The notes: generated by a model from the sequence alone, not told the origin. A stretch of DNA of 64,000 nt from Escherichia phage PNJ1809-36 (MT944117.1), one strand, 5' to 3'; shown: positions 10,575 to 61,507, counted from the stretch's first letter. Numbers and translations are program-made.

Positions 10575-10940
10575 ATGGCTATTAATATTAATGTTTCCTC
10601 TTATGCTACCCTGGCTAACACGGCTAAAATTGAATTATCCAGCATTGAGGCGGTGCATATTAGCGCCCGTCGCTGGTTTCAACAGTCCTACGGTAACACA
10701 TATTTTTCTTTAATGGTTGACGTTGAGATCGGCGGTAAACTGATCGAGGTGGTTAACGTTCCGTTTCAATATGGCTATGGTGATCATTTTGATACCGTCG
10801 CCCTGGAAGAATTTAGCAAGGTTATCAACCTTGAGGGCAAGGAATTTTCACGCGGCGCGTATCTTTCCCGTTTTTGCCGTGACAATGGGATCACTGTATA
10901 CAGTCATGCAAGCGATGTTAAACGTAAAAAAGATCTATAA
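10575..10940 (+). CDS. hypothetical early protein (121 aa)
   Basis: ATG 10575 with SD AAAAGG; listed 10557 start abuts the hairpin with no SD. Confidence 0.6.
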   Translation: MAININVSSYATLANTAKIELSSIEAVHISARRWFQQSYGNTYFSLMVDVEIGGKLIEVVNVPFQYGYGDHFDTVALEEFSKVINLEGKEFSRGAYLSRFCRDNGITVYSHASDVKRKKDL

Positions 10941-30748: not shown

Positions 30749-30777
30749 TTGACAAGTGTTTATTCGTTTTGTAAAGT
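30749..30777 (+). promoter_or_regulatory. sigma70-type promoter upstream of recombinase gene
   Basis: TTGACA 30749-30754, 17-nt spacer, TAAAGT 30772-30777. Confidence 0.55.
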
Positions 30778-30806
30778 GGGAATACAGCAATGGTTTAGGA
30801 GTGGTT

Positions 30807-41362: not shown

Positions 41363-42304
41363 TTAATAACCTCCTTCAAAACGCTTAACTACATGTTGAT
41401 TAGCTTTAAAACGTTCAACATAGTCGTTTTCGCCCATGTTTTCATATAGCTTAGTAACAACATAAAAGTTTTCCCAAGCATATTCCCTAAACCAACCACT
41501 AGTGATGGATGTGCAGACTTTAGATAAAGCCATTATAAAACTTTGCTTAGGGGTTGGACCTCCGATCTCTTCACCGAAAGGAATTTGTGAACGTTCCAAA
41601 GCCAAAACACACGCTTCTTCATAAACACCTAACAGGCGCACATGTTTTGGTTGAGCAAAAAACTTTTCTTTGCTGGTCATAACTTCACTTCCATCTTTCA
41701 TATAAGATTTATATGCTGGAGCATCCATTAACGCGATTGCTTCATGGATAGAATCATGATCATAAACATACGGAACCTCGTCACCTTTAAAGAAGTCTTT
41801 ACTTTTTACGTTTAAGTTCGGATGAGAGTAAGTGTATGTTTCTTTCTCACGTAACTCATAAATACTCTTAAGATTTTCTGGGATCTTTGCGCCCAGTGAC
41901 CGCATGAAATGAATATCTTTCATAGTTTTAAAGAAGTGAGGACTATCCTTTTTAAAACGATGACTCATTTTAAGAAGGTAGAGCACATCTAAAGGAGCAA
42001 CAACATGTCCAGCGTAAGTTCGACGAACATCATCAGAATCTTCACAATAACTAATCAAAGCTTCTGTGCTATCTCCTTGAGAAGCAATATCATATTCCAA
42101 ATGTGCACCAGCTATCATTTTGACGTGGCCTTTGTTCCCTTTACGTTCTACAAGTTCAACAAACTCGTCTTGAGAGAACATTTTTGATAATTCTTCCCAC
42201 TCTTGTTCTGTACACAGGTAATCTAAATCTACACAAGGGCGATACAAGTCTTTTCCCATGTCCATAGCATGAATTTGTAATGCACGGCTACCAATTAACA
42301 CCAT
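41363..42304 (-). CDS. hypothetical protein (313 aa), possible nucleotidyltransferase-like N-terminus
   Basis: SD AGAGGAG; IGSRAL...VDLDY resembles a GS...DxD NTase motif with atypical spacing. Confidence 0.7.
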   Translation of the reverse strand: MVLIGSRALQIHAMDMGKDLYRPCVDLDYLCTEQEWEELSKMFSQDEFVELVERKGNKGHVKMIAGAHLEYDIASQGDSTEALISYCEDSDDVRRTYAGHVVAPLDVLYLLKMSHRFKKDSPHFFKTMKDIHFMRSLGAKIPENLKSIYELREKETYTYSHPNLNVKSKDFFKGDEVPYVYDHDSIHEAIALMDAPAYKSYMKDGSEVMTSKEKFFAQPKHVRLLGVYEEACVLALERSQIPFGEEIGGPTPKQSFIMALSKVCTSITSGWFREYAWENFYVVTKLYENMGENDYVERFKANQHVVKRFEGGY

Positions 42305-43373: not shown

Positions 43374-43647
43374 AAAATTTCTCCTCTCCTAAAGACATGT
43401 TGACATGAAATGCGCGGTATGTAAATTCGTTGTCCGTTGTGTTAGAATAAAACTCAAATTGAACAACACCGTCTTGAGAAGACAAATACATGCCAATTTG
43501 AACTGTTCCTTCTGGTACCAGGTAAGCATACTCTGGACGTAGTGTTACATTGTAAAAATAAAGTTCCCCAACACCCATTTCATCCCAAGCTTCCCAAGCG
43601 GTAACGAAGTTACTTTCAAAACTTGTTACTGATCCGAACTCTGCCAT
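43357..43647 (-). CDS. hypothetical protein (96 aa)
   Basis: SD GAGGAGG. Confidence 0.65.
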   Translation of the reverse strand: MAEFGSVTSFESNFVTAWEAWDEMGVGELYFYNVTLRPEYAYLVPEGTVQIGMYLSSQDGVVQFEFYSNTTDNEFTYRAFHVNMSLGEEKFYDDQV

Positions 43648-44138
43648 AAAACCTCCTCAATCTTGTAGTTTGACTCCATCTCCAACACATTTCCACGAAC
43701 ATCTCTCCGAAGAAAGGCATAAGCTTTATTAGGTATTGTAGACTCATATTTAACCATATCTGGCACAGCAAAAGATACTACTACTCCTGCTGGGCTTCTG
43801 TCAAGAGCCTTATTAATATTTCTAAGGATATCGTTAGCCAAGATTTCTGCCAATTCTCCAAGAACAGTTTCGGTTATATCTTTATATCCCATTAAATATT
43901 TGTTGATATCTTTCATCTCTGTATTGTTCAGAGTATAGTCTAAAGGATAAAAATTCAAAGAGGAGTCACTTTTATGTGTCCACATGAAATGCACCCGATC
44001 CGAGCAGAATCGTAACCCTCTACGAAGAATATCTTCTACAACAGGGAGAATTTCTTTTGTCACATCATTAACCATGTTGTAATCTAAGATTTCTGCCAAG
44101 TTTGTTCTTTGTTCACCACGTTTACGTCTAGGAATCAC
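43626..44138 (-). CDS. hypothetical protein (170 aa)
   Basis: ORF; start codon uncertain (GTG 44138 or ATG 44075). Confidence 0.55.
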   Translation of the reverse strand: MIPRRKRGEQRTNLAEILDYNMVNDVTKEILPVVEDILRRGLRFCSDRVHFMWTHKSDSSLNFYPLDYTLNNTEMKDINKYLMGYKDITETVLGELAEILANDILRNINKALDRSPAGVVVSFAVPDMVKYESTIPNKAYAFLRRDVRGNVLEMESNYKIEEVLWQSSDQ

Positions 44139-44709
44139 TTGTTATTGCCCTCATTACCAAAGGTCGTAGAAAATCGTAAATCTCTTGTTTTGTTTTCCCA
44201 CGAATGTTTAAACAAGGAACATTATTGGCTTTAGCTATCTTCCAAGCCGTAGCTGTTCCACCTTTTGCATCTCCATGTTTATCAGTATTAGCACAAGCCA
44301 ACAAGAAACATGATGGAGCAGGATTCTCCAAATCTCTGCCTAACACTTGATGCACATTACGTTGGTGCAATTTTCTAGCACCCTGCTTAAGCTTTTCATA
44401 AGCTGGGTGAACATCTTTGATCCATTGCACAGAGATAGCATAGTTCATTGTATCTGGTTTTGCAAGAACAATAACATCACCTGGAATCTGATTACCTTTG
44501 AAATTTTCCCAAGGAACATAAATTTCCTTGTTAGTAGGATTTTCAGACTCTTGGACACCTGTTTCAAAAGCAGAATCACTACCCTCTGCCTTACCAGACC
44601 GTAATTTAAACCCAAGGTTTGAAAGCCATTTCCCTATGCCTACCATCAAAGCCCACTCTTCTTCAGATATGTCCCTACTTCCAACTCCCGTATAGAACAG
44701 TTCTGCCAT
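44128..44709 (-). CDS. Rossmann-fold protein, SLOG/DprA-like (tentative)
   Basis: YTGVGSR and SGKAEGSDSAFETG motifs; ATG 44709 after GAGGTGA. Confidence 0.4.
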   Translation of the reverse strand: MAELFYTGVGSRDISEEEWALMVGIGKWLSNLGFKLRSGKAEGSDSAFETGVQESENPTNKEIYVPWENFKGNQIPGDVIVLAKPDTMNYAISVQWIKDVHPAYEKLKQGARKLHQRNVHQVLGRDLENPAPSCFLLACANTDKHGDAKGGTATAWKIAKANNVPCLNIRGKTKQEIYDFLRPLVMRAITSDS

Positions 44710-44716
44710 AATCACC

Positions 44717-45025
44717 TCAACAAGTAATTTCAAAAGGTGTATAGGGTTCCGTATTTCTCATAATCCAAGGACTGCTAGGATTGCTCGGATCATAAGGACC
44801 AAAAGGTTTTATGGTAGGTTGTGTTTCTTTCTTCTGAATCTCTTCAAAAATACGACGAAGTTCAGAATATTCTTGATCCACCATAAGATTCGGTGCATCT
44901 GATTCTACAGTTTGCAGGTTATCTTCCTTAAGAACAATCTCACGAACAAGATTAACATCTTCTGTTTCTAAGATAACTTCTTTACGGATATTACCTACAC
45001 TTTGAATAATTGTAATTTTATACAT
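44717..45025 (-). CDS. hypothetical protein (102 aa)
   Basis: SD GAGGAGG. Confidence 0.65.
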   Translation of the reverse strand: MYKITIIQSVGNIRKEVILETEDVNLVREIVLKEDNLQTVESDAPNLMVDQEYSELRRIFEEIQKKETQPTIKPFGPYDPSNPSSPWIMRNTEPYTPFEITC

Positions 45026-46104: not shown

Positions 46105-46677
46105 TCAAATTATTAACGAAACCGCATGACTAAATCTTGGTTCAGATATAACCTCTGCTACAGTAACATATGTATCGTGCAGCCAAAAAGATTCTACTCT
46201 ACAAACACAAATACCGTTGATAATGAAATCTACACAGGCTTTATTATTTTCGCACACTTGTTGACTATAAACAACCCCTAAAGAGTCATAAAGTGATCTC
46301 ACTGTTGCTACCATTTCATCTGTTTCGTCTTCCTGTGAAACAAAGAAAACGAATACAGACAAGTTATTAGCGAAAGTATTGCTATTCTCTACCTCAACCG
46401 ACTTACAAGGTAAAAAGGAGTAATATTTACCATTAGGTATCAATTTCGCCTCAACCTGGTTAAGTATGCTTTGAGATGGTTTTGTTACATAAAAAAGATT
46501 TTCTGTTGGGTTTTCAACATTACTCCTTACTATGCAACGAGTGGGGTTCGAAGAATCAAAAACATGATCGAAATCGACACACACAGGTAAGTTAACAACT
46601 TTAAACTTTTTGCTAAGAATGCTTACTGCTGTAAAAATCAAACCAGCATTTATTTTGCCAGTGAAAGTTGAACGCAT
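46105..46677 (-). CDS. hypothetical protein (190 aa)
   Basis: ATG 46677 after GAGGAG; listed 46695 start has no SD. Confidence 0.6.
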   Translation of the reverse strand: MRSTFTGKINAGLIFTAVSILSKKFKVVNLPVCVDFDHVFDSSNPTRCIVRSNVENPTENLFYVTKPSQSILNQVEAKLIPNGKYYSFLPCKSVEVENSNTFANNLSVFVFFVSQEDETDEMVATVRSLYDSLGVVYSQQVCENNKACVDFIINGICVCRVESFWLHDTYVTVAEVISEPRFSHAVSLII

Positions 46678-46691
46678 AACTACTCCTCGGA

Positions 46692-46886
46692 TCATTCTAC
46701 CAAAGAGAATTCCGCCTCTTCCAGGTAGATTACAGACCTTGTTGCATGATATTTAACGCTCCAGAAATTACCTTCGCGCCGTAAAAGTATCTCATTCACA
46801 TCAAGATTGCTTAGAAAAACCATATAACTTAAAGCTTGTTGACGCGTTGAGAATTGTTTCTCTAAAAGTTCTTCTCCGCTCTGCAT
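46692..46886 (-). CDS. hypothetical protein (64 aa)
   Basis: SD AAGGAGGG. Confidence 0.6.
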   Translation of the reverse strand: MQSGEELLEKQFSTRQQALSYMVFLSNLDVNEILLRREGNFWSVKYHATRSVIYLEEAEFSLVE

Positions 46887-48356: not shown

Positions 48357-49049
48357 TTAAATAGCGGTTCCTTCGAAATCCGCCACATTTACGAGATTAA
48401 TATTTTCAGATTTAGAAGTCAAGTTGTTTTCTGCAACAGATTTTTCTTCAGTATCCGCCTCGTTACCTGCCACGTTACGAGGTTCTTCTTCACCGTAGGG
48501 ATTACCGAATTTCAAAAGATTGATCAATTCTTCTTTGGAGAAGTTTTCTAAATCATCGTCTGTTAATTCAATAATCTCGTCTTGTTCTTCAATAAATGTT
48601 TCACCACCAGAAAAAGCATCTCGCTTTTTAGCTACTTCCATAGCTTGTTCTGGTGTTGCCCCTGCGTCAAGAGCAGCTAAAGCAAAGTCTGACCCACTTC
48701 CTACTGCATAATATTCTTCATCAATCGGATATGCACGTGTTGGGTTGTTACCTTCGTGCAAGAAAATACGTCCGTCTGGATGAACAACAAGTGCAATAAA
48801 CTCTTCATCTTCTTTATCTGGATCAGAGTGAATCATCAAACCAGGGACAGCATCACGTGCTGCTTCGCACTGTAGATTTTGTTCAAACCATTGAAAGAAA
48901 GAAAGCACGGAGGTCAGACGACCAGCACCACCTACAAGGTAATCTCCAATTTTTCGGACCTTTTTGAAATTAATAGAATCTACACGTCCACCAAAAGTTA
49001 CCTTACCGTCACTCAAAATCTTATTTTTGGTTGCAATAATTGTCGTCAC
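48357..49049 (-). CDS. HslV-like Ntn-hydrolase peptidase with acidic C-terminal extension
   Basis: MTTII N-terminus (Thr after Met), GGRVDS...KKVRKIGDYLVGGAG, AVGSGS; C-terminal 90 aa Glu/Asp-rich; GTG start after GAGGAGG. Confidence 0.7.
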   Translation of the reverse strand: MTTIIATKNKILSDGKVTFGGRVDSINFKKVRKIGDYLVGGAGRLTSVLSFFQWFEQNLQCEAARDAVPGLMIHSDPDKEDEEFIALVVHPDGRIFLHEGNNPTRAYPIDEEYYAVGSGSDFALAALDAGATPEQAMEVAKKRDAFSGGETFIEEQDEIIELTDDDLENFSKEELINLLKFGNPYGEEEPRNVAGNEADTEEKSVAENNLTSKSENINLVNVADFEGTAI

Positions 49050-49584: not shown

Positions 49585-50343
49585 TTAAATAAACACTTCA
49601 GTAATCAGTTTAGACAAACGTCCACGTTTATTATCGTCCGTTGTCAGTTCAACGTATCCAATAAAATCTACAATTGGCTCACGAACACCTTCTTCATTTT
49701 CTGGATATAAAAGTTCCAAAATTTGATGCAGACCATTGCTACGTTTTTTAATTGCATATGTCTGGCGAACATCGCCTAATACAATAACATGCGTATTAAT
49801 ACCTGCACGTTCAATAAGAAGTTTAAGTGTTTCTGTTGACATAAGTTGTGCTTCGTCAATAATGACGATTGTATTATCCAGGGTGGCCCCCAACAAATAG
49901 TTAGGAATATTCAATTCGATCTTACCTGATCCAATATCGTTTTCCAATTTGTTGGCTGTCATGAATTGCTGGAAAATACGTTTTGTAGATTCATAGTGTG
50001 CTGCTAGTTTATCTGTTTTATCTCCAGACAAGAAACCAATCTGGTCATCTCCGACTTCAGTAGGGTTCTTGATAAAAAGTAGTTTACGGAAGTCTCCTGA
50101 ACGAAGCATCTGCAAAGCTTTCCATAAAGCAACAGAGGTTTTACCAGTCCCTGCCGGAGCATTTACAACAGTCAGATCATTCCAAATCATGCTTTGAACA
50201 ATCTTATTTTGGTCCCCTTCAGGCATAAATTCATCTAAACGGTAATCGTCATTACCTACCGCTTTTGCTGCATAACGGCTTTCAATCTTTGCTGAATTAG
50301 CCAGTTTCTGCCGTTGTGTTTTAGCTGCGGTTTTATTTCCCAT
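49585..50343 (-). CDS. phoH: PhoH-like ATPase
   Basis: Walker A APAGTGKT; PhoH-like body; ATG 50343 after AAGGAG. Confidence 0.85.
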   Translation of the reverse strand: MGNKTAAKTQRQKLANSAKIESRYAAKAVGNDDYRLDEFMPEGDQNKIVQSMIWNDLTVVNAPAGTGKTSVALWKALQMLRSGDFRKLLFIKNPTEVGDDQIGFLSGDKTDKLAAHYESTKRIFQQFMTANKLENDIGSGKIELNIPNYLLGATLDNTIVIIDEAQLMSTETLKLLIERAGINTHVIVLGDVRQTYAIKKRSNGLHQILELLYPENEEGVREPIVDFIGYVELTTDDNKRGRLSKLITEVFI

Positions 50344-50360
50344 AGTAGCACTCCTTTTAG

Positions 50361-50378
50361 AAGGGGCCGAAGCCCCTT
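50361..50378 (-). other. intercistronic UUCG-tetraloop hairpin without T-run
   Basis: minus strand GGGGC-TTCG-GCCCC between lysozyme stop and phoH SD. Confidence 0.5.
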
Positions 50379-50380
50379 TA

Positions 50381-50881
50381 TTAGTTGTAAGCATCTAAAG
50401 TTCCAGAAGTCAGAACTTTAATTACTCGTTCAGCACGGTTTGGCGTCTGGCTATACCATCGGCTTTTACGCATGTTTTTACCTGCTTGAGTATAATATGC
50501 ATTGCTGATTAAAGTCAAGCTATTTTGAAACCCTTCAGCACCTTTTAACCCCAACTGGAAAACCATGTTGATTATTCCCAATTTACGAGTATCACTAACC
50601 TTATCATAGATTGGTGATAAGATAGCACTGTTTTTTATGTCTCTCTTCACTTTTGCAACATCGTCAGCAAAGATTTGACGGGCTTCTTTTTCTGTGATAA
50701 CTCCATTAGTCTTACGACCAAGAAGATTATCTAAGATTTGAATAGCCTTTGCTTTATCTTTTATTTTAGTCAGAAGGTGTCCTATGCCGACTGTCCAATA
50801 ACCAAGATGGTCTTGATAAACAGTAAGCTTCAGTCCTTCATCGACTCGTAGCATATCAAACTCATCTACTACTTTAGCCAT
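50381..50881 (-). CDS. T4-type lysozyme (endolysin, muramidase)
   Basis: MLRVDEGLKLTVYQDHLGYWTVGIGHLL closely parallels T4 lysozyme N-terminus incl. catalytic Glu/Asp/Thr region. Confidence 0.9.
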   Translation of the reverse strand: MAKVVDEFDMLRVDEGLKLTVYQDHLGYWTVGIGHLLTKIKDKAKAIQILDNLLGRKTNGVITEKEARQIFADDVAKVKRDIKNSAILSPIYDKVSDTRKLGIINMVFQLGLKGAEGFQNSLTLISNAYYTQAGKNMRKSRWYSQTPNRAERVIKVLTSGTLDAYN

Positions 50882-50888
50882 TTACTTC

Positions 50889-51038
50889 CTATTCGTCGTC
50901 TCCTACTCCGTGATCCAACTCGTTAAACAACAGATGTTCTGGAGAAGTTTCACGTTTTGGTTTCGTTTTCTTTATGTTGGACTTCAGCTCATTTGCCAAA
51001 GCACGAGAAAAGATCTTACGTTTCTGTTTACTTTTCAT
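50889..51038 (-). CDS. small hypothetical protein (49 aa), basic N-term and acidic C-term
   Basis: ORF between glutaredoxin and lysozyme genes, stop 4 nt before lysozyme SD. Confidence 0.4.
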   Translation of the reverse strand: MKSKQKRKIFSRALANELKSNIKKTKPKRETSPEHLLFNELDHGVGDDE

Positions 51039-51043
51039 AATTG

Positions 51044-51304
51044 TTACTCCGCAATTTGAGCCATGAGATCACGCAGTTCGGTAAAACCGCCTACGTATGT
51101 TACCTCCCCGTTCACTTCGGACAGAATTTGTGGAAATGTGCGTGGAGGAACTCCGGTAAGATCAACAACTGTTTTAGTCATTGATTCTAAATCATAGTCT
51201 TGATCAAGACTTAAATATTCAAACTGTTTATTGCGCATGGTTAATAGTTGTTTTGACATTTCACAAAATTGACAGTTAGGTTTACCAAAAATTACAAATT
51301 CCAT
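51044..51304 (-). CDS. glutaredoxin/NrdH-like redoxin
   Basis: 86 aa with CQFC (CxxC) active site near N-terminus; adjacent to nrd genes. Confidence 0.7.
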   Translation of the reverse strand: MEFVIFGKPNCQFCEMSKQLLTMRNKQFEYLSLDQDYDLESMTKTVVDLTGVPPRTFPQILSEVNGEVTYVGGFTELRDLMAQIAE

Positions 51305-52146
51305 TACCTCTCCTTATTAAGTAATACTGCTAAAGACTGTTCAATACCTTTATTTAAATCTGATTTTGTAAGATAGTGACTGGTTACTAGTTGTGACTTC
51401 ACCGGACGTGCTGCTGGAGCATTATAGGTTGAAGCTGATACCGCCGATATCTTAACAGGTTCTGGCATCTGTGTCAAGATCTTTTCCGCAAACTCCGCCC
51501 AAGAAATAAGATGGCTTCCTGCAAAATGGTAAGTCTTAACAGACCTTGACCAACCTGTTTTTAATACTTCAAAAATAGCTTCTGCTAAATCTGGAGCATA
51601 TGTTGGACAAGAGAACTGATCAGCAACAATAATAAAATCACGTTGTCCATCATTATAGCGAGACAACATGGTTTTTAGAAAGTTATTTCCAAATTCGCTA
51701 TATACCGAGGCTGTTCGAATAATATATGCATTTGGGTTAACTCCTCGCACCATTTTTTCACCAAGTTCTTTCGTATACCCATAATTGTTTATTGGGTTAG
51801 GTGTAGTATCTTCAAAAATAGGATGAGAATAATTAAAAATATAGTCTGTAGAAATATGCACAAAATCAATTTTAAGTTTGCTGCACACTGCCGCAATATT
51901 TGCAGGTCCATACGCATTAACAGCCAAAGCAGTAGCAAAATCATGTTCTGCTTTATCTACAGCCGTATAAGCGGCGCAATTAATAACACCATCTACATAA
52001 TCTTCAATAATAGCGTTTCGCACAGCTTCAAAATTTGTAATATCTACACGTTCTTTAGGATAAATTAAAGATACATTTGAAGGAGCCACTTTACGTAAAG
52101 CTTGTCCCAGTTGTCCATTACCGCCCAATACCAGATATGTTAGCAT
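51304..52146 (-). CDS. rmlD: dTDP-4-dehydrorhamnose reductase
   Basis: N-terminal GGNGQLG Rossmann motif; 280 aa; operon with rmlC/A/B. Confidence 0.85.
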   Translation of the reverse strand: MLTYLVLGGNGQLGQALRKVAPSNVSLIYPKERVDITNFEAVRNAIIEDYVDGVINCAAYTAVDKAEHDFATALAVNAYGPANIAAVCSKLKIDFVHISTDYIFNYSHPIFEDTTPNPINNYGYTKELGEKMVRGVNPNAYIIRTASVYSEFGNNFLKTMLSRYNDGQRDFIIVADQFSCPTYAPDLAEAIFEVLKTGWSRSVKTYHFAGSHLISWAEFAEKILTQMPEPVKISAVSASTYNAPAARPVKSQLVTSHYLTKSDLNKGIEQSLAVLLNKER

Positions 52147-52706
52147 ACACCCTCGCTACGTAACTGTTGAAAAGATTTAGCCATTGCATCTTTTGTTGAT
52201 AGAATAGGTTTAAAACCTTCGTCAAAAATCATATCGAAGCCCCAATCGATCCCTATATCAGGATCATCCCAACGTAAACTTTGTTCACTAGAAGGGTCGT
52301 ATGGAGTTGTGCATTTGTATTCAAAGATAGCATCCATACTCAAAACTATAAAACCATGAGCCAAACCAGGCGGAAGCCAAAACTGCGTATGGTGTCGTGC
52401 ACGAAGAACAACACCGTCCCAAGCACCGTAAGTTGGACTATCTTTACGTAAATCTACAGCGAAATCCAATACTTCCCCACTTACACAACGAACTAGCTTA
52501 CCTTGCGGGTTATTTGTTTGAAAGTGCATTCCTCGCAAAACACCGAAGTTTGATTTAGACATGTTATCTTGAACGAAAGTTTGTCTACCAATAATATCTT
52601 CGTATTTTTGTTCATTATATGTTTCTAGAAAGAAACCACGATCATCTTTATAAACGTCTGGTTTGATAATTACCGCACCTTCAATTTTTGTTTTTTCTAC
52701 TTTCAT
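52140..52706 (-). CDS. rmlC: dTDP-4-dehydrorhamnose 3,5-epimerase
   Basis: RGMHFQ motif region; ATG 52706 forms ATGA overlap with rmlA stop. Confidence 0.85.
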
Positions 52707-53581
52707 TTTCTCTCCGCTAATTTGAGTAGGTATTGCCCGTACTCTGTTTTCTTCAGTGAGTTTCCATGATACACCAAAGTCTCTAAAGAAATCCACCCTT
52801 TTTTGAAAGCAATTTCTTCCAGGCACGCAATCTTCAATCCTTGACAGTTCTCAATAGTCTGCACGAATTGACCGGCTTCCATCAGACTGGCGTGTGTTCC
52901 TGTGTCAAGCCAAGTAAATCCTCGTCCGAGAACTTCCACTTGTAACTTCCTGTCTTCTAGGTAGCTGCGATTGATATCAGTGATCTCCAGTTCTCCACGC
53001 GCGGAAGGGGTTACTTCTAATGCACGTTGAATAACAGAGTTATCATAGAAATACAAACCTGTGACAGCATAATCTGATTTAGGATTTTCAGGTTTCTCTT
53101 CAATAGAAATAGCTTGACGATTACTCCCAAATTCAACCACACCGAATCGTTCAGGATCTTTCACCAAATACCCGAAAATACAAGCTCCGCCCCAAACATC
53201 TACCATCTCACTGGCGTTAATCAGTAGTTTACCAAAGCTTTGTCCGAAGAATAGGTTGTCACCTAAAATAAGAGCAACAGAGTCTTCTCCGATAAAATCT
53301 TTACCTATGATGAAAGCTTCCGCAAGACCTCGTGGCTCGGATTGGATTGCGTAAGTGAGTTTTATCCCAAACATAGACCCATCTCCGAGAAGATACTCAA
53401 AGTCTTCCTGATCACCTGGTGTGGTGATGATTAAAATATCCTTAATGTCAGCCAACATCAATACCGATAAAGGGTAGTAGATCATGGGTTTGTCATACAC
53501 AGGGAGCAATTGCTTGCTCACACTGCGTGTTACCGGATGAAGGCGGGTTCCACTTCCTCCCGCCAAAATAATACCTTTCAT
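52703..53581 (-). CDS. rmlA: glucose-1-phosphate thymidylyltransferase
   Basis: [19 protein letters not shown]-terminus; SD AAGGAGGG. Confidence 0.9.
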
Positions 53582-53589
53582 AACCCTCC

Positions 53590-54582
53590 TTAAATTTTCT
53601 CACTCCACCATTGAGGGTTGTTTAAGTACCATTCAATCGTTGAGTAGAGATCTTGTTCAAATGTAGAGTTTGCACTCCAGCCCAGTTCAGACTCTATCTT
53701 AGAAGGATTGATTTCATAACGCAAGTCATGTCCTTTACGATCTTCAACAAAAGTTATCAAGTTGGAAGAAGGGTAGGTTACTGCTTCTGGATGTACAGTA
53801 TCCATATAGTCACAAACCATATAGATGATCTCCATATTGGTTTTGGGATTACGTGTTCCAACATTATACGTTTGACCTGGTTCTCCACCTGTTGCCACTT
53901 GAAGAATAGCTCGCGCATGATCCTCAACAAAAAGCCAGTCTCGCACCTGGTCGCCTTTACCATACACCGGAATCTCTTTATTCGTCAAGATACTTGTGAT
54001 GATTTTTGGGATCAGCTTTTCTGGATGTTGATAAGGCCCAAAGTTATTGGAGCAGTTGGTTATCACAACAGGCAAATCGTAGGTGCGGTGCCAAGCTTTC
54101 ACAAGATGGTCAGATGCCGCCTTAGACGCACTGTATGGGCTTGAAGGGGCATAAGCTGTCTCTTCGGTAAAAGGAACGCCAGAGTCTGCCATATCGCCGT
54201 ACACTTCGTCTGTGGAGACGTGTACGAACATCTTCAGTTTATTTTTTGGGAGGAGCCTTGCAGCTTCCAATAAATTGTATGTACCAATAATATTGGAGTC
54301 AATGAAAACTCGTGGATTCTTGATAGAATTATCCACATGACTCTCTGCCGCTAAGTGAATGATGAAATCGGGATTGCACTCTACTACTAAACTTTTGACC
54401 TGGGTTTCGTTTGCCAAATCTGTCATGCTTAGTTTAATGTGAGTGATATCGCCTACATTCTCAATATCTGCTGCATAGCCCATCTTATCAACGACAAAAA
54501 CTTCGTTATTAGGATCTTGACAAAGAGAGCGCACCACGGCACTCCCAATAAAACCAAGACCACCTGTTACCAGATAGCGCAT
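53590..54582 (-). CDS. rmlB: dTDP-glucose 4,6-dehydratase
   Basis: [17 protein letters not shown] Rossmann N-terminus; SDR dehydratase length; SD AAGGAG. Confidence 0.9.
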
Positions 54583-54591
54583 CAGTTCTCC

Positions 54592-54918
54592 TTACCAGAC
54601 ATGTTGAGAAATAATAGTTTCCGTTTTAATGTTATATTTTTCAAGTAGTTTTGCATAGGCTTCTTTTGCATTCTCATTCAATTGCTCAAGATCTACAGCT
54701 ATGCTTCCTTCTCCGCCTTCTAAATCAAGGCCATATATGCAATAAGACTCATCCGCATCGTAGAAAGGAGAGATGCGGCTTAAGTCAAGACCTTCTTGTA
54801 AGAACCAGTTAAAATCTCCGTCAAATTCTTCTTCAATTCTAGGGTCTTCTCCTACAGCCTCTTCCCACTTATTAAAAGGTGCACCCTGTAACATACGCCA
54901 TTCGATATCAATACCCAT
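54592..54918 (-). CDS. hypothetical acidic protein (108 aa)
   Basis: ORF; overlaps upstream small gene. Confidence 0.6.
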   Translation of the reverse strand: MGIDIEWRMLQGAPFNKWEEAVGEDPRIEEEFDGDFNWFLQEGLDLSRISPFYDADESYCIYGLDLEGGEGSIAVDLEQLNENAKEAYAKLLEKYNIKTETIISQHVW

Positions 54919-55072
54919 TTTTCATCTCCTCCTCTTCTTGAGCAGCTTTAATAATTGCTTCATAAATATCGTAAGCAATGCCTCCACAACATCTAGCTTC
55001 GAAAGCTATTGCTTCTGCAATGTGATCTGTTAATTCTCGTGGAATGCGGACATATTCTTTTTCACTCTCCAT
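54908..55072 (-). CDS. small hypothetical protein (54 aa)
   Basis: SD GGAGG + ATG 55072. Confidence 0.4.
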   Translation of the reverse strand: MESEKEYVRIPRELTDHIAEAIAFEARCCGGIAYDIYEAIIKAAQEEEEMKNGY

Positions 55073-55214
55073 CTTCTACCTCCAACCCTTCTTTTTCAAA
55101 GATTACTACTCGTCCCTCACCATGACAATTCAGGCAAGGAAATGTTACCATAATTTCCACTTCCATCTGTCCAGTCCCACCGCACACAGGACAAAAAATA
55201 AGTTTTTCAGCCAT
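55062..55214 (-). CDS. small zinc-ribbon protein (50 aa)
   Basis: CPVCGG...CLNCHG; TAATG overlap with upstream stop. Confidence 0.45.
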   Translation of the reverse strand: MAEKLIFCPVCGGTGQMEVEIMVTFPCLNCHGEGRVVIFEKEGLEVEDGE

Positions 55215-55423
55215 TATTCCTCCTTAATTATTTCAAACTTGGCAACACCATTTACAATAATATGACCACAAGACATAACTCCTAGCCAAGGATCGCCGTT
55301 TTTCTTCAGGCGTTTACCGAATACATCACAAAAACCATTCTTCATTTCGGAGGCTTCATAAGAAGCCCCTTTGTCAAAAACGTCTTTGAATGTGTCGATT
55401 ATACCAACACATCTCAAAATCAT
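55214..55423 (-). CDS. hypothetical protein (69 aa)
   Basis: TAATG overlap with nrdB stop. Confidence 0.55.
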   Translation of the reverse strand: MILRCVGIIDTFKDVFDKGASYEASEMKNGFCDVFGKRLKKNGDPWLGVMSCGHIIVNGVAKFEIIKEE

Positions 55424-56508
55424 TAGAAGTCAAGCTCCTCATCATCAGAGAGATCTTTGTTAGCTGAATTCAATTTGTAATTAGTTAACTGAATCTCTTG
55501 GGCTGCTGACTGAATCAAATCAGGATTCAACCATTTTTCCATCCAAGCTAAAGGACTATGTTTAGGTGCTTTAAACTTGGCTTTCATTTTCAATCGACGA
55601 TAAATAGGAGCAGCATTGAAATAAACCCACTGTTTAGACAATTCAGCGTTAAGACCTACAATAAAACGACCTTCACTAAACAGGTAGTCACACCACTGTT
55701 CCTCTTGTTCAACAACAGTGTCGAGGATCAAAGTCAACTCTTCAATATTGTCTTCGTAAATTTTACGCCAAATTGGGTCATGCATCAATGCATCAATTAC
55801 AGCATAATCCATCTTAACATGCAAGATTTCATCTAGCATAATTTTCTGGATCAGTTTACAAGCCCCAACAAACAGTTGTTGTTCTGCCATAGCAAAAGTA
55901 GCAGAGAAGGAAGATATAAACTGAATACCTTCTAATCCAATCAGGGCTACCATCCCTTTAAGAATCAGCAGTCGAAGTTCATCGTTAGCTTCAATCAATC
56001 CTAGAGCATACTTATGACCAGCTTCTTCCAACTGACCCATGATATCAGCAATGATACCCATACGATTGAAAATTTTATCATTAATCATAATCTGATTGAT
56101 GACTTCAATTGGATCTGGAGTACATTGACGGATTATTTCAGAATACGTTAACGCATGGAGAACTTCCATTTCACTCTGCTTCATCATCATAGCACAGGCT
56201 TCATTGTTACTCAAGAATGGAGAGAACAAAGTGATGATTGATTTTGCAAGAGAATCATTTTCCCATTGGAACGATAAGTTTTTAATCATAACATCATAGT
56301 TGTTTTTAGAACAAGCTACGAAATCTTTACGTGTCTGATCCAGATTAACTTCGTTTTCATCCCAATCTTGTGCTTTTTGAAGTTTGTAGAGTTTGTGCAT
56401 TTCAGGGTAAGTCACGTTGATAGAATCAAAAATCCCCAACTGTTCCCCCATGAAAACTGGATATTTACCTGTTTTGTAAGTCTCGTTATGTAAATTAATT
56501 GCTGCCAT
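55423..56508 (-). CDS. nrdB: ribonucleotide reductase class Ia beta subunit
   Basis: 361 aa; NrdB-like ferritin-fold protein next to nrdA; SD GGAGG. Confidence 0.9.
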   Translation of the reverse strand: MAAINLHNETYKTGKYPVFMGEQLGIFDSINVTYPEMHKLYKLQKAQDWDENEVNLDQTRKDFVACSKNNYDVMIKNLSFQWENDSLAKSIITLFSPFLSNNEACAMMMKQSEMEVLHALTYSEIIRQCTPDPIEVINQIMINDKIFNRMGIIADIMGQLEEAGHKYALGLIEANDELRLLILKGMVALIGLEGIQFISSFSATFAMAEQQLFVGACKLIQKIMLDEILHVKMDYAVIDALMHDPIWRKIYEDNIEELTLILDTVVEQEEQWCDYLFSEGRFIVGLNAELSKQWVYFNAAPIYRRLKMKAKFKAPKHSPLAWMEKWLNPDLIQSAAQEIQLTNYKLNSANKDLSDDEELDF

Positions 56509-56833
56509 TTAAATCCTCCACTATTTCACAAAAACCTCTTAAGCTTAAAATATCTTCTTCCTCAAAATCATTGCTCCGGTAGAAAGCTTCCAGTGCTTCC
56601 CATACGCTTCTACCAAGTATAACAGTCACTGTTTCTTCACTTCTTGCCCTTGTTATTGCGTAAGCCGTGGCTTCTGGATAAAAAGATTCCCAAATCTGCA
56701 TGTTAGCTATTTCAAGACCGCCAAGATAATGGTGACACCAAGTAGGGGTAAAATCTTCAGGGCGAATCAACAGAGGCTTAAACCCAGGTCGGTAGATTGG
56801 GGTTACTCCAGGTAAAACTATAAGTGTGCTCAT
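56495..56833 (-). CDS. hypothetical protein (112 aa) between nrdA and nrdB
   Basis: internal ATG of listed ORF (avoids overlap with nrdA and terminator hairpin). Confidence 0.5.
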   Translation of the reverse strand: MSTLIVLPGVTPIYRPGFKPLLIRPEDFTPTWCHHYLGGLEIANMQIWESFYPEATAYAITRARSEETVTVILGRSVWEALEAFYRSNDFEEEDILSLRGFCEIVEDLNGSN

Positions 56834-56846
56834 AATCCTCCTCAAT

Positions 56847-56872
56847 AAAAAGGGGCTGAAGCCCCTAGTTTC
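56847..56872 (-). terminator. hairpin terminator/attenuator after nrdA
   Basis: minus strand GGGGC-TTCA-GCCCC followed by TTTTTATT. Confidence 0.55.
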
Positions 56873-56873
56873 A

Positions 56874-59114
56874 TCACATTTTGCAAGCTTCACAACCACC
56901 ATCAGAATCTTCTTGTGCTAAAGAGTCTGCTGATTTTGTTCTACTGTTAAGGTAATACAATGACTTGCCACCCAGTCTAGCAAAATTCAGAATAAACTGC
57001 ATCTCAGCTTTCACTGATAAACGTCCACCTACCAATTTAGAATAATCTAGCCAAGAATCACAAGAAATTCCTTGGTCCGTAAACTTGGTAAAGATACCAT
57101 ACATTTCTGCAAGATCTTTAGCCGGAGTGTCCCAGGCAGACTGGTAGAACATTTTCAGTTTTTCATAGTCTGGAACAATAAATAATACACTACCTTTCTG
57201 ACTTTGTTTATACATAATAGTATCACGAACAGGATACAGAGAGTTAGTAGTATTGCTTACCAAACTGCTGGACTCATTAGGTGCAATAGCAGCCAAGACA
57301 CTGTTACGGATACCACCTTGTTCAATGATTTCAGCACGTAAGCCTTCCCAGTCCATTTTAAGATCAAAATTACCGATACTATCTACTGTTTTAGCATAAG
57401 TGTCAATTGGTAGCCAACCTTGAGGCCATTTGGTCTTATCGATCCATTCTGCATTACCTTTTTCCTTAGCCAGACGCAGAGAGGCTTTTGCCAACCAAAA
57501 GTAATGACGTTCTGCAAGTTCATGCATTAATTTTTTAGCATAAGCGTCTGAATAATTTACAAAATTACTTGCCAAATAATGCGCTAAGTTTGTAATGCCT
57601 ACACCAATAGATCTACGTGCTTTAGCAGTTATTTCGTTATGTTTAAATGGATAATCCATTGTTTCAATAACGTTGTCAATTGTCAATACAGTGTAGTATG
57701 CAACATCCTCATATTCTTCAGGTAAGACACGACCAGCAACAATAGAAGATAAGAAGCATAAAGCCAATTCTTGATTTTCTGTATTCTCACCAGTAAAGAG
57801 ATCCGGCATACTGTGGAAAGCTTTAGTTGGTAAGAAGATCTCTTGACACAGGTTTGATTGATACACCGTATCCAGGAAAGGTGTATGGTTGTTAACGTTG
57901 TCAGCAAAGAACATGTAAATACGTCCTGTTTCTGCACGTTGAACAATAATCTCTGTCAGAAGATCACGAGCCTTAACAAATTTTTTCTTAATGCGACGAC
58001 GGCTTACTTTGTCATAAACTGCATCAAACTCTTCTTCACTTTTATACAAAGCTTCATAAAGTTCAGGAGCATCATCACAACTAACTAACATCCAATCTTC
58101 GTTTTTTGCTGCTCGACGCAAGAACGAACGGTTAACAACAATAGAATAATCCAGTTTGTCTACTCGTTTATCTATAGGTGTTGTTGGATTCTTCAGTCGA
58201 ATCAGATCGTCGAAGTCTGGTTCAAGTATGGTAAAGGTAACTGTAGCACTACCTCCACGGCTTGCTTGCTTCGAAGCTCCAACACTATCTTCCATCCATT
58301 TCAGATACGGAAGAAGACCACCATGAATAATACGATTATTCTTAACACCTTGACCTGTGGCACGAGTTTGAAGATTAACACCAATACCTGCGTTATTCAA
58401 CGTATACTCATGAGCTAAGTAATTAGCAATGGCTAAAGACTCTGCCGTATCGTCTGCACGGAACAAACAACAAGACGCACTTCCTTTGATTGGAGTTCGT
58501 AGAGTTGTCAGATACGGCGATGGCAGATTAATCTTAAGATCGCTAACATAAGTATAAAGTTTTTTAATATCTTCTATACGGCGTTCTTTTGGTTGGATCT
58601 CCATAACCTTCATTGCGATACCAATGAAAAGAAACTGTGGAGACTCATGCACCACATCGTTTACTGCATCTCGAATAAGATATTTATCTACCATCTGACG
58701 TAAAACAGAATAACCATAAGTTAGATTTTTATTATGCTTTACAATCTTACCGATTTCTTTGATCTCTTCATCAGTATAATCCATTTTAGCCCAATGTCCA
58801 CGTTCTACCATATCATGATAAAAGGTATTCAGTGAAGGGATACTGTGGTATCCCCCATGAGCCTGTTTGTAAATCATACCCAGAAGAAGTCTTCCTGCCA
58901 TATCACTGTAAGCTTGTGTTTTCTTGTCAATACACGCTGCAATCATTGCTTTATGCAGATCACGTGTAGACACACCGTCATAACACCGCTTCACAGCTTC
59001 TAATTCAATTTCAGACCAGTTTAGTTTACCTGCTGCAAATTCAGACCACTTGCGAAGTTTTTCTGGATTAAACTCCTCTGTCTTACCGTTAGATTTAGTT
59101 ACAAAACGAATCAA
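56874..59114 (-). CDS. nrdA: ribonucleotide reductase class Ia alpha subunit
   Basis: 746 aa; ATP-cone N-terminus similar to T4 NrdA; C-terminal Cys pair CEACKM; TTG start after GGAGGAG. Confidence 0.95.
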   Translation of the reverse strand: MIRFVTKSNGKTEEFNPEKLRKWSEFAAGKLNWSEIELEAVKRCYDGVSTRDLHKAMIAACIDKKTQAYSDMAGRLLLGMIYKQAHGGYHSIPSLNTFYHDMVERGHWAKMDYTDEEIKEIGKIVKHNKNLTYGYSVLRQMVDKYLIRDAVNDVVHESPQFLFIGIAMKVMEIQPKERRIEDIKKLYTYVSDLKINLPSPYLTTLRTPIKGSASCCLFRADDTAESLAIANYLAHEYTLNNAGIGVNLQTRATGQGVKNNRIIHGGLLPYLKWMEDSVGASKQASRGGSATVTFTILEPDFDDLIRLKNPTTPIDKRVDKLDYSIVVNRSFLRRAAKNEDWMLVSCDDAPELYEALYKSEEEFDAVYDKVSRRRIKKKFVKARDLLTEIIVQRAETGRIYMFFADNVNNHTPFLDTVYQSNLCQEIFLPTKAFHSMPDLFTGENTENQELALCFLSSIVAGRVLPEEYEDVAYYTVLTIDNVIETMDYPFKHNEITAKARRSIGVGITNLAHYLASNFVNYSDAYAKKLMHELAERHYFWLAKASLRLAKEKGNAEWIDKTKWPQGWLPIDTYAKTVDSIGNFDLKMDWEGLRAEIIEQGGIRNSVLAAIAPNESSSLVSNTTNSLYPVRDTIMYKQSQKGSVLFIVPDYEKLKMFYQSAWDTPAKDLAEMYGIFTKFTDQGISCDSWLDYSKLVGGRLSVKAEMQFILNFARLGGKSLYYLNSRTKSADSLAQEDSDGGCEACKM

Positions 59115-59890: not shown

Positions 59891-60889
59891 TCACCATTTA
59901 GTATGATTTGTTAAAAGTTGACGATGTTGAATCCAGCCTTTGAAATTGCCAGACCAAAACTTACCATTACGATCTACATGGGTAATACCTGGTTCCCAAG
60001 AGTTAAAATCCCAAGGAGCATTGATAAACAAATCTTCAAAACAGTTCTCTCCATATTGTTCGCATGTTTCTTGAATTGGAGTGGCTTGATGTTCAAACGG
60101 AGAAGCATGAACCTTGCGCCCAGTCAGCAAACGACCATAGATATCTAAAGCTTTATCTTTAGTTGCATTTAAACGACGATAGCTAACCTGTGCACAACAT
60201 GAAGCTGAAATAGCTTTAGCTTCTTCCAAAGTAAGCACAACAACTTCTCCAGATTCATCTTGAACGTAGTATCCACCAAAAACAAAATGATCGTCACCTT
60301 CTGTGCCAATATTATCGTAGAAATGGTCTACATAAGGTGTGTGCCATTGCCCTGGTTTCAGCACTTCTGGTGTAGATCCTTCATACTCTTTGTGCATCTC
60401 TTTAGCCAAAGCTTCGATAGTAGGATCGGCTTCTTTGTCATCACGTAGCCACCAGAAATTTTCATATTCTGTTGCTGTCAGAACTGTTTTAATTCGTTGG
60501 AAAGGTTCCAGAAGACGGTTTGCAACTTGTTTGTGGTACCCTGCCAAAGAGAATTCTTCTGCAAAACGTGCTGCACTAAGCGCGGCAAGATCCCACCACT
60601 CTTGAGCAGTATAACCTGCATCAATAAGAGCGTCATGATCAACACCTTTATCCTGCATACCAGGTTGGTTAGCCCCAAAACGATAAGGACGAGCAGGTTG
60701 ATTTCGCACCATTTCAATCAGTGTTTTAACAGGTATAGCACGGCTAGAAGCAGCATTACGACTGAACAGGCGGTGAGTCATCAATTCTGAATGAATAATA
60801 CGTGGATATTCTAGTTCAAAAGTTACAATCTCTTTTCCGTCTTCAGTGATGGAATGCGCAATAATACTAGCCGAAATCTGTTTTGTCAT
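59891..60889 (-). CDS. thyX: flavin-dependent thymidylate synthase-like protein (ThyX family, divergent)
   Basis: THRLFSRNAASSRAIP resembles the ThyX RHR-x7-S signature with Thr for first Arg; 332 aa, longer than typical ThyX. Confidence 0.7.
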   Translation of the reverse strand: MTKQISASIIAHSITEDGKEIVTFELEYPRIIHSELMTHRLFSRNAASSRAIPVKTLIEMVRNQPARPYRFGANQPGMQDKGVDHDALIDAGYTAQEWWDLAALSAARFAEEFSLAGYHKQVANRLLEPFQRIKTVLTATEYENFWWLRDDKEADPTIEALAKEMHKEYEGSTPEVLKPGQWHTPYVDHFYDNIGTEGDDHFVFGGYYVQDESGEVVVLTLEEAKAISASCCAQVSYRRLNATKDKALDIYGRLLTGRKVHASPFEHQATPIQETCEQYGENCFEDLFINAPWDFNSWEPGITHVDRNGKFWSGNFKGWIQHRQLLTNHTKW

Positions 60890-60898: not shown

Positions 60899-61507
60899 TT
60901 AGTTTTTAAAATTGTTCAAAGTGTTAAAAACATCCAAACATGTTAGCCACTGATCTTCTAAACCTGTGATCACAACATTTGGTTTTTTCTTTAGTTCTTC
61001 TAGATGGTTATCTTTATAAGGCGTATTAAAATATATTTTAACCACTTCATCTGGAAAATATAGTAGGTTATCAGCCCTGTCATCTATTGCTATATCACAA
61101 GGCAATAAGTATTTTTCTTTCGTAGCAAAAAAGCCGTTACCAGATCCTTTGCTAAAATCAATCGTATCTAACGTTCTTAAAACATGCTTATGTTTAGAAC
61201 TTAAGTGACCACCTTTTGTCACACTTGCGATCAAAAGATTGCTACCTTTCCTTGAAACATACTTTAAGAAATCTGGCATACCTGGAACAAAACCCATTGT
61301 ATCATAGAGATGAGGATTATCCAGAAATCCGTAAGGATCTATATTGAACTCCTCCCTGAAACCAGGAAAGTAGTTGGTAAGATCATAGTCTGCATTTTTT
61401 GTGAATGTGTCTATCTTAACACCAAGTCCACTAATCTTATTCAACCATTCTAACCAAGCAACATCTAATGGAGCCACAACTAAATCCCAATCACATACTA
61501 TCTGCAT
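60899..61507 (-). CDS. HAD-family 5'-deoxyribonucleotidase (T5 Dmp-like)
   Basis: N-terminal IVCDWDLV (DxD), later SVTKGG and AIDDRADN. Confidence 0.65.
   Translation of the reverse strand: MQIVCDWDLVVAPLDVAWLEWLNKISGLGVKIDTFTKNADYDLTNYFPGFREEFNIDPYGFLDNPHLYDTMGFVPGMPDFLKYVSRKGSNLLIASVTKGGHLSSKHKHVLRTLDTIDFSKGSGNGFFATKEKYLLPCDIAIDDRADNLLYFPDEVVKIYFNTPYKDNHLEELKKKPNVVITGLEDQWLTCLDVFNTLNNFKN

Follow-up and report, generated by a model that had tools for sequence, protein, structure and literature searches.

A complete dTDP-L-rhamnose pathway in a Phapecoctavirus genome and its candidate glycosyltransferase partners

Four rml genes within a nucleotide-metabolism gene string

A stretch of 64,000 nucleotides from Escherichia phage PNJ1809-36 (MT944117.1), analyzed at its full length and referred to here as the window, contains four adjacent genes, rmlB, rmlA, rmlC, and rmlD, for the synthesis of deoxythymidine diphosphate (dTDP)-L-rhamnose. 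The window belongs to a Phapecoctavirus (phAPEC8-like Escherichia coli myoviruses, subfamily Stephanstirmvirinae) and its DNA is 99.9% identical to that of vB_EcoM_ASO2A and 99.6% identical to that of phAPEC8, the type phage of Phapecoctavirus. All four genes are encoded on the minus strand: rmlB (53590-54582) encodes a dTDP-glucose 4,6-dehydratase of 330 amino acids, rmlA (52703-53581) a short-form glucose-1-phosphate thymidylyltransferase of 292 amino acids, rmlC (52140-52706) a dTDP-4-dehydrorhamnose 3,5-epimerase of the cupin type (188 amino acids), and rmlD (51304-52146) a dTDP-4-dehydrorhamnose reductase of 280 amino acids. The longest open reading frame (ORF) of rmlC reaches 52826 from a GTG codon; the ATG at 52706 was taken as the start because it is preceded by a Shine–Dalgarno sequence and agrees with the GenBank annotation and the PDB alignments.

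The NCBIfam equivalog cut-offs served as the identity criterion for each enzyme and all four proteins exceeded them: RmlB scored 431.7 bits with TIGR01181 (cut-off 365.1), RmlA 464.5 bits with TIGR01207 (360.65), RmlC 225 bits with TIGR01221 (155.75), and RmlD, by a narrow margin, 237.6 bits with TIGR01214 (224.05). The Pfam E-values of the four proteins range from 2e-66 to 5e-80. RmlB aligns to the Salmonella enterica structure 1g1a (E 1.5e-110) with the GGxGFIGS NAD site, the TDE triad and the YSASK motif retained, and RmlA aligns to 4ho0 (E 4.8e-125) with GGSGTRL, LGDN, EKP, and WLDTGTH retained. In the alignment of RmlC to 1dzr the His (LRGMHFQ), Lys (GKLVRC), and Tyr (FEYK) residues are retained and STKDA, with the Asp partner, also aligns. 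RmlD remained below the cut-off of the enterobacterial model NF007440 (118 vs. 308) and its best PDB matches are Bacillus anthracis 3sc6 and Clostridium 1vl0; it scored 153.6 and 152 bits against the Bacillus and Clostridium structures compared with 105 bits against the Salmonella RmlD, with STDY and YGYTK (YxxxK) retained. The original prediction, made from the nucleotide sequence, of a complete dTDP-L-rhamnose pathway at 51304-54582 was confirmed with exact coordinates, four equivalog matches and retained catalytic motifs, and the four genes constitute an intact and complete phage copy of the bacterial RmlA/RmlB/RmlC/RmlD pathway. The predicted product is dTDP-L-rhamnose with a presumed configuration at C4; the epimer dTDP-6-deoxy-L-talose would also be compatible with the sequence.

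The phage genes share equivalog-level matches and catalytic residues with the rfb/rml O-antigen clusters of Salmonella, E. coli, and Pseudomonas (structures 1g1a, 1h5r, 1dzr, and 1kbz) but differ from them in gene order (B-A-C-D in the phage, B-D-A-C in E. coli as annotated) and in context. Unlike the bacterial clusters, the phage rml genes have no adjoining transferase, flippase or polymerase gene and are embedded in a ribonucleotide-reductase operon.

Overlaps or short gaps were found at every junction, in agreement with the predicted translational coupling of the four genes: rmlB and rmlA are separated by an 8-nucleotide gap with AAGGAGG, rmlA and rmlC overlap by ATGA, rmlC and rmlD overlap by seven nucleotides, and rmlD and the following glutaredoxin gene overlap by TAATG. 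The glutaredoxin gene (grx, 51044-51304, minus strand, Pfam Glutaredoxin, E 1.8e-9), which overlaps the rmlD stop codon, is followed by genes for a T4-type lysozyme (50381-50881, minus strand, Pfam Phage_lysozyme, 6.6e-11) and a PhoH-like ATPase (49585-50394, minus strand, Pfam PhoH, 1.2e-36). Upstream of the rml genes, and separated from them by four small ORFs, lie the class Ia ribonucleotide reductase genes nrdA (56874-59114, minus strand, Pfam Ribonuc_red_lgC, 2.9e-97) and nrdB (55423-56508, minus strand, Pfam Ribonuc_red_sm, 8.3e-33) with an annotated ORF of 135 amino acids between them (56495-56902, minus strand). The positions thus agree with the predicted placement between nrdAB and glutaredoxin, lysozyme and phoH, and the description of the phage as lytic is consistent with a lineage reported to be virulent (PMC13407771). 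No terminator-like sites other than weak intragenic ones were found on the minus strand from 56850 to 48351, and the rml genes appear to be transcribed within the nrdAB-grx-phoH nucleotide-metabolism gene string; consensus-level hits of the promoter and terminator scan were near the shuffle expectation and the transcription unit is not definable from the scan. On the minus strand at 56851-56866, directly after the nrdA stop codon and inside the ORF at 56495-56902, a strong hairpin (AGGGGCTTCAGCCCCT) with a subsequent T run resembles a terminator; it may act as an attenuator between nrdA and nrdB or may point to a doubtful ORF call.

The same minus-strand string contains a ThyX-type thymidylate synthase gene (59891-60889, Pfam Thy1, 5.4e-8; phrog_85, 1.2e-107; HRxxSRxxxSSR motif) and, adjoining it, a gene for an NT5C-like deoxynucleotidase (60899-61507, minus strand). 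A HslV/proteasome-like peptidase (48357-49049, minus strand) and a DprA-like protein (44128-44733, minus strand) are encoded in this long gene string as well.

The cluster has been annotated as gp100-103 of phAPEC8 since 2012, with the same four products (GenBank JX561091). Olsen et al. 2020 termed the position of the rml genes in the DNA-metabolism region "peculiar" and suggested a rhamnosylation of hydroxymethylated nucleotides (PMC7552041), Maffei et al. 2021 described the phi92-like rml carriers of the BASEL collection as "exceptionally susceptible" to restriction-modification systems (PMC8594841), and Vitt et al. 2024 restated the oddity of the rml genes, the DNA idea and the restriction susceptibility (PMC10844046). 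Published instances of the same cluster include phi92-like phages, Danish wastewater phages (PMC7552041), and the BASEL collection (PMC8594841), and the window displays no difference from the published phAPEC8/phi92-like cluster. With both the observation and the DNA hypothesis in print (PMC7552041), the cluster and the idea of rhamnosylated DNA are already known. A search of the literature to mid-2026 returned annotation-level remarks and no functional experiment on the phage rml genes. Beyond the published record, the present analysis contributes candidate transferase partners, the breakpoints of an rmlBA indel and its frequency, evidence that bears on the DNA hypothesis, the exclusion of the proposed window ORFs as transferases and the ancestral status of the cluster in the Stephanstirmvirinae. 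Public records contain near-identical phages under the names "Campylobacter phage B15/A145/C3," "Acinetobacter phage vB_AbaM_ABPW7," and "Pseudomonas phage PsgM04F"; for Stephanstirmvirinae of the E. coli type, such host assignments seem questionable.

Ancestry of the cluster and loss of rmlB and rmlA

Selection on the rml genes was estimated by the Nei–Gojobori method, with figures given only where dS was unsaturated. The dN/dS ratios are 0.01-0.12 relative to a 97.5%-identical phage and, relative to phiWec179, 0.03-0.04 for rmlB and rmlA and 0.11-0.20 for rmlC and rmlD. Purifying selection acts on all four genes. The same gene order (nrdAB-rmlBACD-grx-lysin-phoH) recurs in the divergent Klebsiella phage 05F01, with Rml proteins that are 41-68% identical, and RmlD homologues were identified in Phapecoctavirus, the phiWec group, Justusliebigvirus, and Klebsiella members of the subfamily. 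Matches to the rml cluster exist in 5,423 of the 5,426 complete E. coli genomes searched, at 60-80% nucleotide identity (approximately 64% in the top-ranked rows), and the best of them fall on E. coli loci annotated as rfbB, rfbD, rfbA, and rfbC; none of the 5,426 genomes reaches a coverage of at least 80% of the cluster. There is no step in G+C content across the cluster. The level of nucleotide identity, the low coverage in E. coli and the absence of a G+C step argue against a recent capture from E. coli; the cluster is old, vertically inherited and ancestral to the Stephanstirmvirinae.

These data bear on the possibility that the genes are passengers, captured from a host and without a role in the phage. 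The natural dispensability of rmlB and rmlA described below would be consistent with such an origin, but none of the four genes is disrupted, purifying selection acts on all of them, their position is conserved across the subfamily despite the low identity of the Rml proteins, no close DNA match exists in the 5,426 E. coli genomes, and rmlC and rmlD are retained with at least 95% identity in 64 Phapecoctavirus-level records, a count equal to that of the transferase gp115 described below. The passenger explanation is already effectively refuted.

The full rmlBACD set is not universal in the genus. A cassette of 1,871 bp on the minus strand (52716-54586) that contains rmlB and rmlA is present in some Phapecoctavirus isolates and absent from others, as defined by the alignment of Mt1B1_P17, which matches the window only at 50601-52715 and 54587-55800. 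Isolates without rmlBA include Mt1B1_P17, anhysbys, nepoznato, ZCKP1, ABPW7, SF1-1, and ETEC-TG, all of which retain rmlC and rmlD, and ESCO37 was reported to lack both rmlB and rmlA (PMC10269720). A second rmlA/rmlB pair in ESCO5, considered on the basis of the same publication, was rejected: its coordinates are those of the genes that ESCO37 lacks and there is no duplicate set. The deletion junction is located at a GGAGA Shine–Dalgarno microhomology, which leaves rmlC with the ribosome-binding site that otherwise serves rmlB. An RmlD of at least 95% identity is present in 64 records and an RmlB of at least 90% identity in 47 records, approximately six of which are attributed to the phiWec/PsgM04F group; based on these record counts, rmlB and rmlA are estimated to be missing from about one-third of the Phapecoctavirus records. 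Relative to phiWec179, RmlB and RmlA are 94-97% identical and RmlC and RmlD only 64-66% identical, which suggests that the rmlBA cassette has a separate history.

All E. coli make dTDP-4-keto-6-deoxyglucose for the enterobacterial common antigen (ECA) via RffH and RffG, and only some strains continue from this intermediate to rhamnose. Of the 5,426 E. coli genomes, 5,422 contain rmlA homologues, the median number of loci in a genome being one. Given this near-universal host supply, RmlC and RmlD would be needed from the phage and RmlA and RmlB would only raise the flux; we therefore infer that RmlC and RmlD are the conserved core of the pathway and RmlA and RmlB a dispensable booster cassette. 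A branch toward an amino sugar, suggested by the annotation "TDP-4-keto-6-deoxy-D-glucose transaminase, wecE" in SKA64 (L004 5932-6078), was rejected as a misannotation of a 48-amino acid ORF.

An ORF of 108 amino acids (54592-54918, minus strand, phrog_15453, no Pfam match) is located directly upstream of rmlB. It is retained in the variants that lack rmlBA (gp243 in Mt1B1_P17) and displays approximately 90% nucleotide identity to Justusliebigvirus phages, compared with only 54-62% protein identity for the neighboring Rml proteins, which suggests a recent exchange or an unusually strong constraint.

Glycosyltransferases inside and outside the window

All window ORFs of at least approximately 155 amino acids were scanned against Pfam and no glycosyltransferase family was found among them. 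The original prediction named four unannotated ORFs as possible transferases (41363-42304, 39637-40290, 46105-46677, taken here as 46105-46695, and 43626-44138), none of which proved to be a glycosyltransferase by Pfam or PHROGs. The ORF at 46105-46695 belongs to a PHROG labelled tRNA-synthetase-like, and those at 39637-40290 and 43626-44138 gave no glycosyltransferase signal. The ORF at 41363-42304 (minus strand) contains DUF7277 and DUF7275, has 2,209 homologues, some of them in jumbo Salmonella phages, and carries a GS...DxD motif; its comparison by hhalign with the GT-A family of gp114 (see below) gave a probability of 0.4%. An AlphaFold2 model (mean predicted local distance difference test score, pLDDT, 90.2) contains a Pol-beta-type nucleotidyltransferase domain and a helical domain in which His and Asp residues are invariant, and is closest to the nucleotidyltransferases MenT1, ANT(2'')-Ia, and LnuA. 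The best matches of the model thus point to a MenT-like nucleotidyltransferase fold (MenT1 is a tRNA-targeting toxin, the other two are antibiotic nucleotidyltransferases).

The alternative offered in the same prediction, a transferase that lies elsewhere, held. In the close relative tuntematon four adjacent genes (gp113-116, 48.5-51.6 kb) match PHROG glycosyltransferases with E-values of 1e-78 to 1e-148 and are placed between a SleB-type endolysin gene and a primase/helicase gene, approximately 70 kb from the rml genes. According to the mapping, the window corresponds roughly to 111.8-150.5 kb and 0.4-25.7 kb of tuntematon, which places the cassette outside the window. The gp113 and gp114 genes encode small GT-A proteins with DxD motifs, and gp115 and gp116 encode paralogous GT-B proteins that match GT-B Pfam families. 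No transmembrane segment was detected in gp113-117 by a Kyte–Doolittle scan. No significant match emerged when profiles of the GT-A and GT-B families were compared with PDB sequences, and only the fold comparison was informative; it assigned a generic GT-A fold to gp114. All four transferases belong to the PHROGs category "moron, auxiliary metabolic gene and host takeover." To our knowledge, no function has been assigned to this combination of GT-A and GT-B genes.

The distribution of gp115 coincides with that of RmlD: each was found in 64 Phapecoctavirus-level records and in the phiWec group, Justusliebigvirus, and the Klebsiella members of the subfamily, and no rv5- or PVP-SE1-type phages are among the gp115 matches listed. 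The best contextual evidence for the use of a 6-deoxyhexose nucleotide sugar comes from a divergent metagenomic relative (L021, IMGVR_UViG_3300031372_000212, 7379-10927), in which an RmlB-like 4,6-dehydratase gene is located between the gp113-like and gp114-like genes. The dehydratase scored 195 bits with TIGR01181, below the cut-off, and the locus lies upstream of primase and DNA polymerase genes.

Relatives of the cassette extend beyond the subfamily. In a Serratia prophage, genes similar to gp113 (41% identity), gp114 (36%), and gp115 (51%) have the lysis genes on one side and HNH-TerS-TerL-capsid on the other, lambdoid contigs contain a pair of one gp114-like and one GT-B gene between the Q antiterminator and holin genes, and gp115 matches annotated glycosyltransferases of Streptomyces and Arthrobacter phages with 25-26% identity. 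At least 561 relatives of the cassette were confirmed in IMG/VR. Among 71 distant IMG/VR loci, the same-strand neighbors include HNH genes (39 loci), gp114-like GT-A genes (31), hexapeptide acyltransferase genes (24), and methyltransferase genes (14), and in 25 of the 71 a large terminase gene follows approximately 1.8 kb downstream on the same strand. The transferase cassette is mobile and widespread in phages and frequently precedes HNH, TerS, and TerL genes at a short distance; the loci that carry it comprise L002 23463-26885 (tuntematon gp113-117), L009 5589-7670, L010 9394-10969, and L014-L092.

Just upstream of the endolysin gene and the transferase cassette, tuntematon encodes a Ter-type module (gp088-108, L002 11459-22140) consisting of TerC, TelA, a vWA-TerF-like protein, TerD, a ComF-like phosphoribosyltransferase, a HAD hydrolase, and a phosphatase; the TelA/vWA-TerF/TerD core is kept in divergent relatives (L006 and L007). 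A link between the transferases and the Ter module (TelA/TerD/vWA-TerF/TerC) is not supported, as other phages carry the cassette in the absence of Ter genes.

Several further genes of the window were recorded. A Sir2-family protein (38308-39108, minus strand) and a NADAR-domain protein (6600-7142, plus strand) belong to families that are both tied to NAD/ADP-ribose chemistry and may have counter-defence or host-takeover functions. A serine recombinase/resolvase (30756-31478, plus strand, Pfam Resolvase, 6.7e-18) is encoded in the early region, in a phage lineage that has been called strictly virulent, and an AAA-type ATPase of 379 amino acids followed by a protein of 335 amino acids with CapR homology and a treble-clef zinc finger (3836-6052, plus strand) is found among small early genes.

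Candidate acceptors for the phage-made sugar

The two gene sets can be combined into one scheme. RmlA (where present) and RmlB, or the host enzymes RffH and RffG, would produce dTDP-4-keto-6-deoxyglucose from glucose-1-phosphate and dTTP, and the phage RmlC and RmlD would carry this intermediate on to dTDP-L-rhamnose in every host, irrespective of the O-antigen. The four soluble phage transferases would then build a short rhamnose-containing glycan on an acceptor other than DNA, with virion proteins made late in infection as the first choice and a host envelope glycoconjugate as the second. A probability of roughly 0.5 was assigned to this reading, in which the phage rml genes feed the phage's own four-transferase cassette. 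Virion proteins themselves are proposed tentatively as the target, ahead of the host envelope and, with a lower probability, DNA, the remainder being shared by other targets or a pure metabolic diversion. The location of the cassette in late operons of other phages, beside packaging and head genes, together with the neighboring sugar acyltransferase, fits a decoration of virion proteins.

The logic of such a putative system resembles the self-glycosylation of giant viruses and mycobacteriophages. Mimivirus and PBCV-1 encode nucleotide-sugar pathways and transferases that glycosylate their capsids or fibrils; the giant viruses and chloroviruses use a UDP-rhamnose route in eukaryotic hosts, whereas the route found here is the bacterial dTDP route and virion glycosylation would be the corresponding outcome. 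In the mycobacteriophages Che8 and Rita, phage-encoded transferase sets decorate capsid proteins (Freeman et al. 2023, as summarized in PMC11256854). Phage-encoded transferases are common to both systems (here in the genome of a relative), but the mycobacteriophage hosts are actinobacteria.

Several observations weigh against a phage-fed glycan on virion proteins or another non-DNA acceptor. The rml and transferase genes are located approximately 70 kb apart and their co-occurrence could reflect mere shared descent. The cassette is found in temperate phages without rml genes in the stretches seen, so that the sugar donor need not be dTDP-rhamnose. Both gene sets lie among early or middle DNA-metabolism genes and not among structural genes, an argument used by others for a DNA target (PMC7552041). 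The gp114 protein shows a weak, sub-threshold similarity to the TET-associated glycosyltransferase (TAGT) over 37 residues (19.5 bits vs. a cut-off of 27.5) and a weak similarity to phrog_842, the T-even beta-glucosyl-HMC-alpha-glucosyltransferase (HMC, hydroxymethylcytosine), over 39 residues around the DxD motif (E 7.6e-6). Among the 71 distant loci, 24 contain ParB_N and 14 contain methyltransferase genes, both of which are typical neighbors of DNA modification. Finally, neither an experiment that links Rml to the transferases or names the acceptor nor a report of glycosylated virion proteins in these phages was found in the literature.

The same local similarities and neighboring genes speak in favor of a DNA target. 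According to this hypothesis, stated in PMC7552041 and repeated in PMC10844046, phage transferases place rhamnose from dTDP-rhamnose on a hydroxylated base, in a T4-like manner, and protect the DNA from host nucleases; the rml genes are part of a nucleotide-metabolism operon and the transferase genes adjoin primase/helicase, Dam, and DNA polymerase genes. T-even phages with glucosyl- or arabinosyl-hydroxymethylcytosine likewise have a phage sugar system among DNA-metabolism genes, and gp114 is weakly and locally similar to one of their DNA glucosyltransferase PHROGs, but they encode a hydroxymethylase, for which no counterpart was found here, and use the UDP-glucose of the host, whereas the phage of the window makes its own dTDP-sugar. 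ThyX is the sole enzyme of a thymidylate synthase family and is common to rv5 and PVP-SE1 according to GenBank notes. Neither a ThyA-like hydroxymethylase nor a TET/JBP enzyme was found by Pfam among the window ORFs of at least approximately 155 amino acids, or in the rest of the relative's genome by annotation and by Pfam on the larger unknown proteins. In the lambdoid phages that carry the cassette, no base-hydroxylating enzyme is visible. The evidence on restriction sensitivity is taken from the literature on relatives of the phage: restriction-modification systems are exceptionally effective against the phi92-like carriers of rml (PMC8594841), HincII resistance in the ESCO collection was reported only for ESCO10, ESCO47, and ESCO58 (PMC10269720), from which the Phapecoctavirus and Justusliebigvirus isolates of that collection appear to be cut, and the DNA libraries in the same study were made with a Nextera kit.

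Overall, a T4-like modification is considered unlikely, as is a bulk glycosylation of the DNA, and of the three rhamnosylated products named in the original prediction (hypermodified DNA, glycosylated virion proteins and altered host surface polysaccharide) DNA is the least likely, given ThyX, the missing TET/JBP enzymes, the restriction-susceptible relatives and the HincII data. A sparse or sequence-specific rhamnosylation, in which the GT-A enzyme with faint similarity to TET-associated and T-even DNA glycosyltransferases would modify a rare, already altered base with rhamnose or a short chain that contains it, is rated as quite unlikely as well; such marks would be too sparse to stop EcoRI, EcoRV, EcoKI, or HincII, and they might counter another defence. 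If true, this would represent a new DNA sugar modification fed by a phage-made dTDP-sugar.

The genomic positions of the cassette in temperate phages, between Q and holin genes or between spanin and terminase genes, are also classical moron slots, which keeps a remodelling of the host envelope alive as an explanation. In that case the soluble transferases would use dTDP-rhamnose at the cytoplasmic face of the membrane to modify the lipopolysaccharide (LPS) core, the O-antigen or ECA, and would thereby block superinfection or keep progeny phages off cell debris. The PHROGs class of all four transferases agrees with this, capsule, ECA, and LPS have been proposed as receptors of these phages (PMC10844046; PMC8594841), and rhamnose is described as a facultative component of the K-12 LPS core (Klein 2011, as cited in PMC12548472). 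However, no flippase, polymerase, GtrA/B/C-type or other membrane protein is encoded in or beside either gene set, a virulent phage would have little time to replace the LPS on the cell surface, and the cassette of the temperate phages is part of the late transcript, which is unusual for lysogenic-conversion genes. The O-antigen conversion systems GtrABC and Oac of temperate phages consist of integral membrane proteins expressed in lysogens; a modification of cell-surface sugars is shared with them as a possible reading, but the transferases described here have no transmembrane segment, the lineage is virulent, and no Gtr-type or Oac family was found in the Pfam scans of the window. An envelope target is regarded as doubtful, although it ranks second.

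A glycan would not be formed at all if RmlC and RmlD served to drain dTDP-4-keto-6-deoxyglucose from the common-antigen and O-antigen synthesis of the host. RmlA is allosterically inhibited by dTDP-L-rhamnose, and the accumulated product could inhibit host RmlA/RffH, closing the drain on dTTP and glucose-1-phosphate or perturbing the envelope. The placement of the rml genes inside an operon for deoxynucleotide supply (nrdAB, thyX, the NT5C-like nucleotidase and grx) and the isolates, about one-third, that retain only RmlC and RmlD would both suit such a diversion. On the other hand, RmlA and RmlB are present in most isolates and strongly constrained by purifying selection (dN/dS 0.03-0.12), and their presence would raise the consumption of dTTP and not spare it, and the clade-wide co-occurrence with four transferases, together with the dehydratase inside the transferase cassette, points to a glycan product. 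A purely metabolic role is judged improbable.

Phapecoctavirus and Justusliebigvirus are among the coliphages with the broadest host ranges and have repeatedly been proposed for therapy and biocontrol (PMC10844046; PMC10269720). If the preferred reading of a phage-fed glycan on virion proteins is correct, the rhamnose glycan would affect the stability, mucus binding and immune clearance of the virions. Natural anti-L-rhamnose antibodies are abundant in humans. The natural variants that lack rmlBA and the four-transferase cassette provide ready genetic handles on the identity of the acceptor. Self-decoration would make these phages a rare case of a phage of Gram-negative hosts that makes its own nucleotide sugar for this purpose, and a sugar placed on the host envelope or on the DNA would instead bear on superinfection exclusion or the evasion of host defences.

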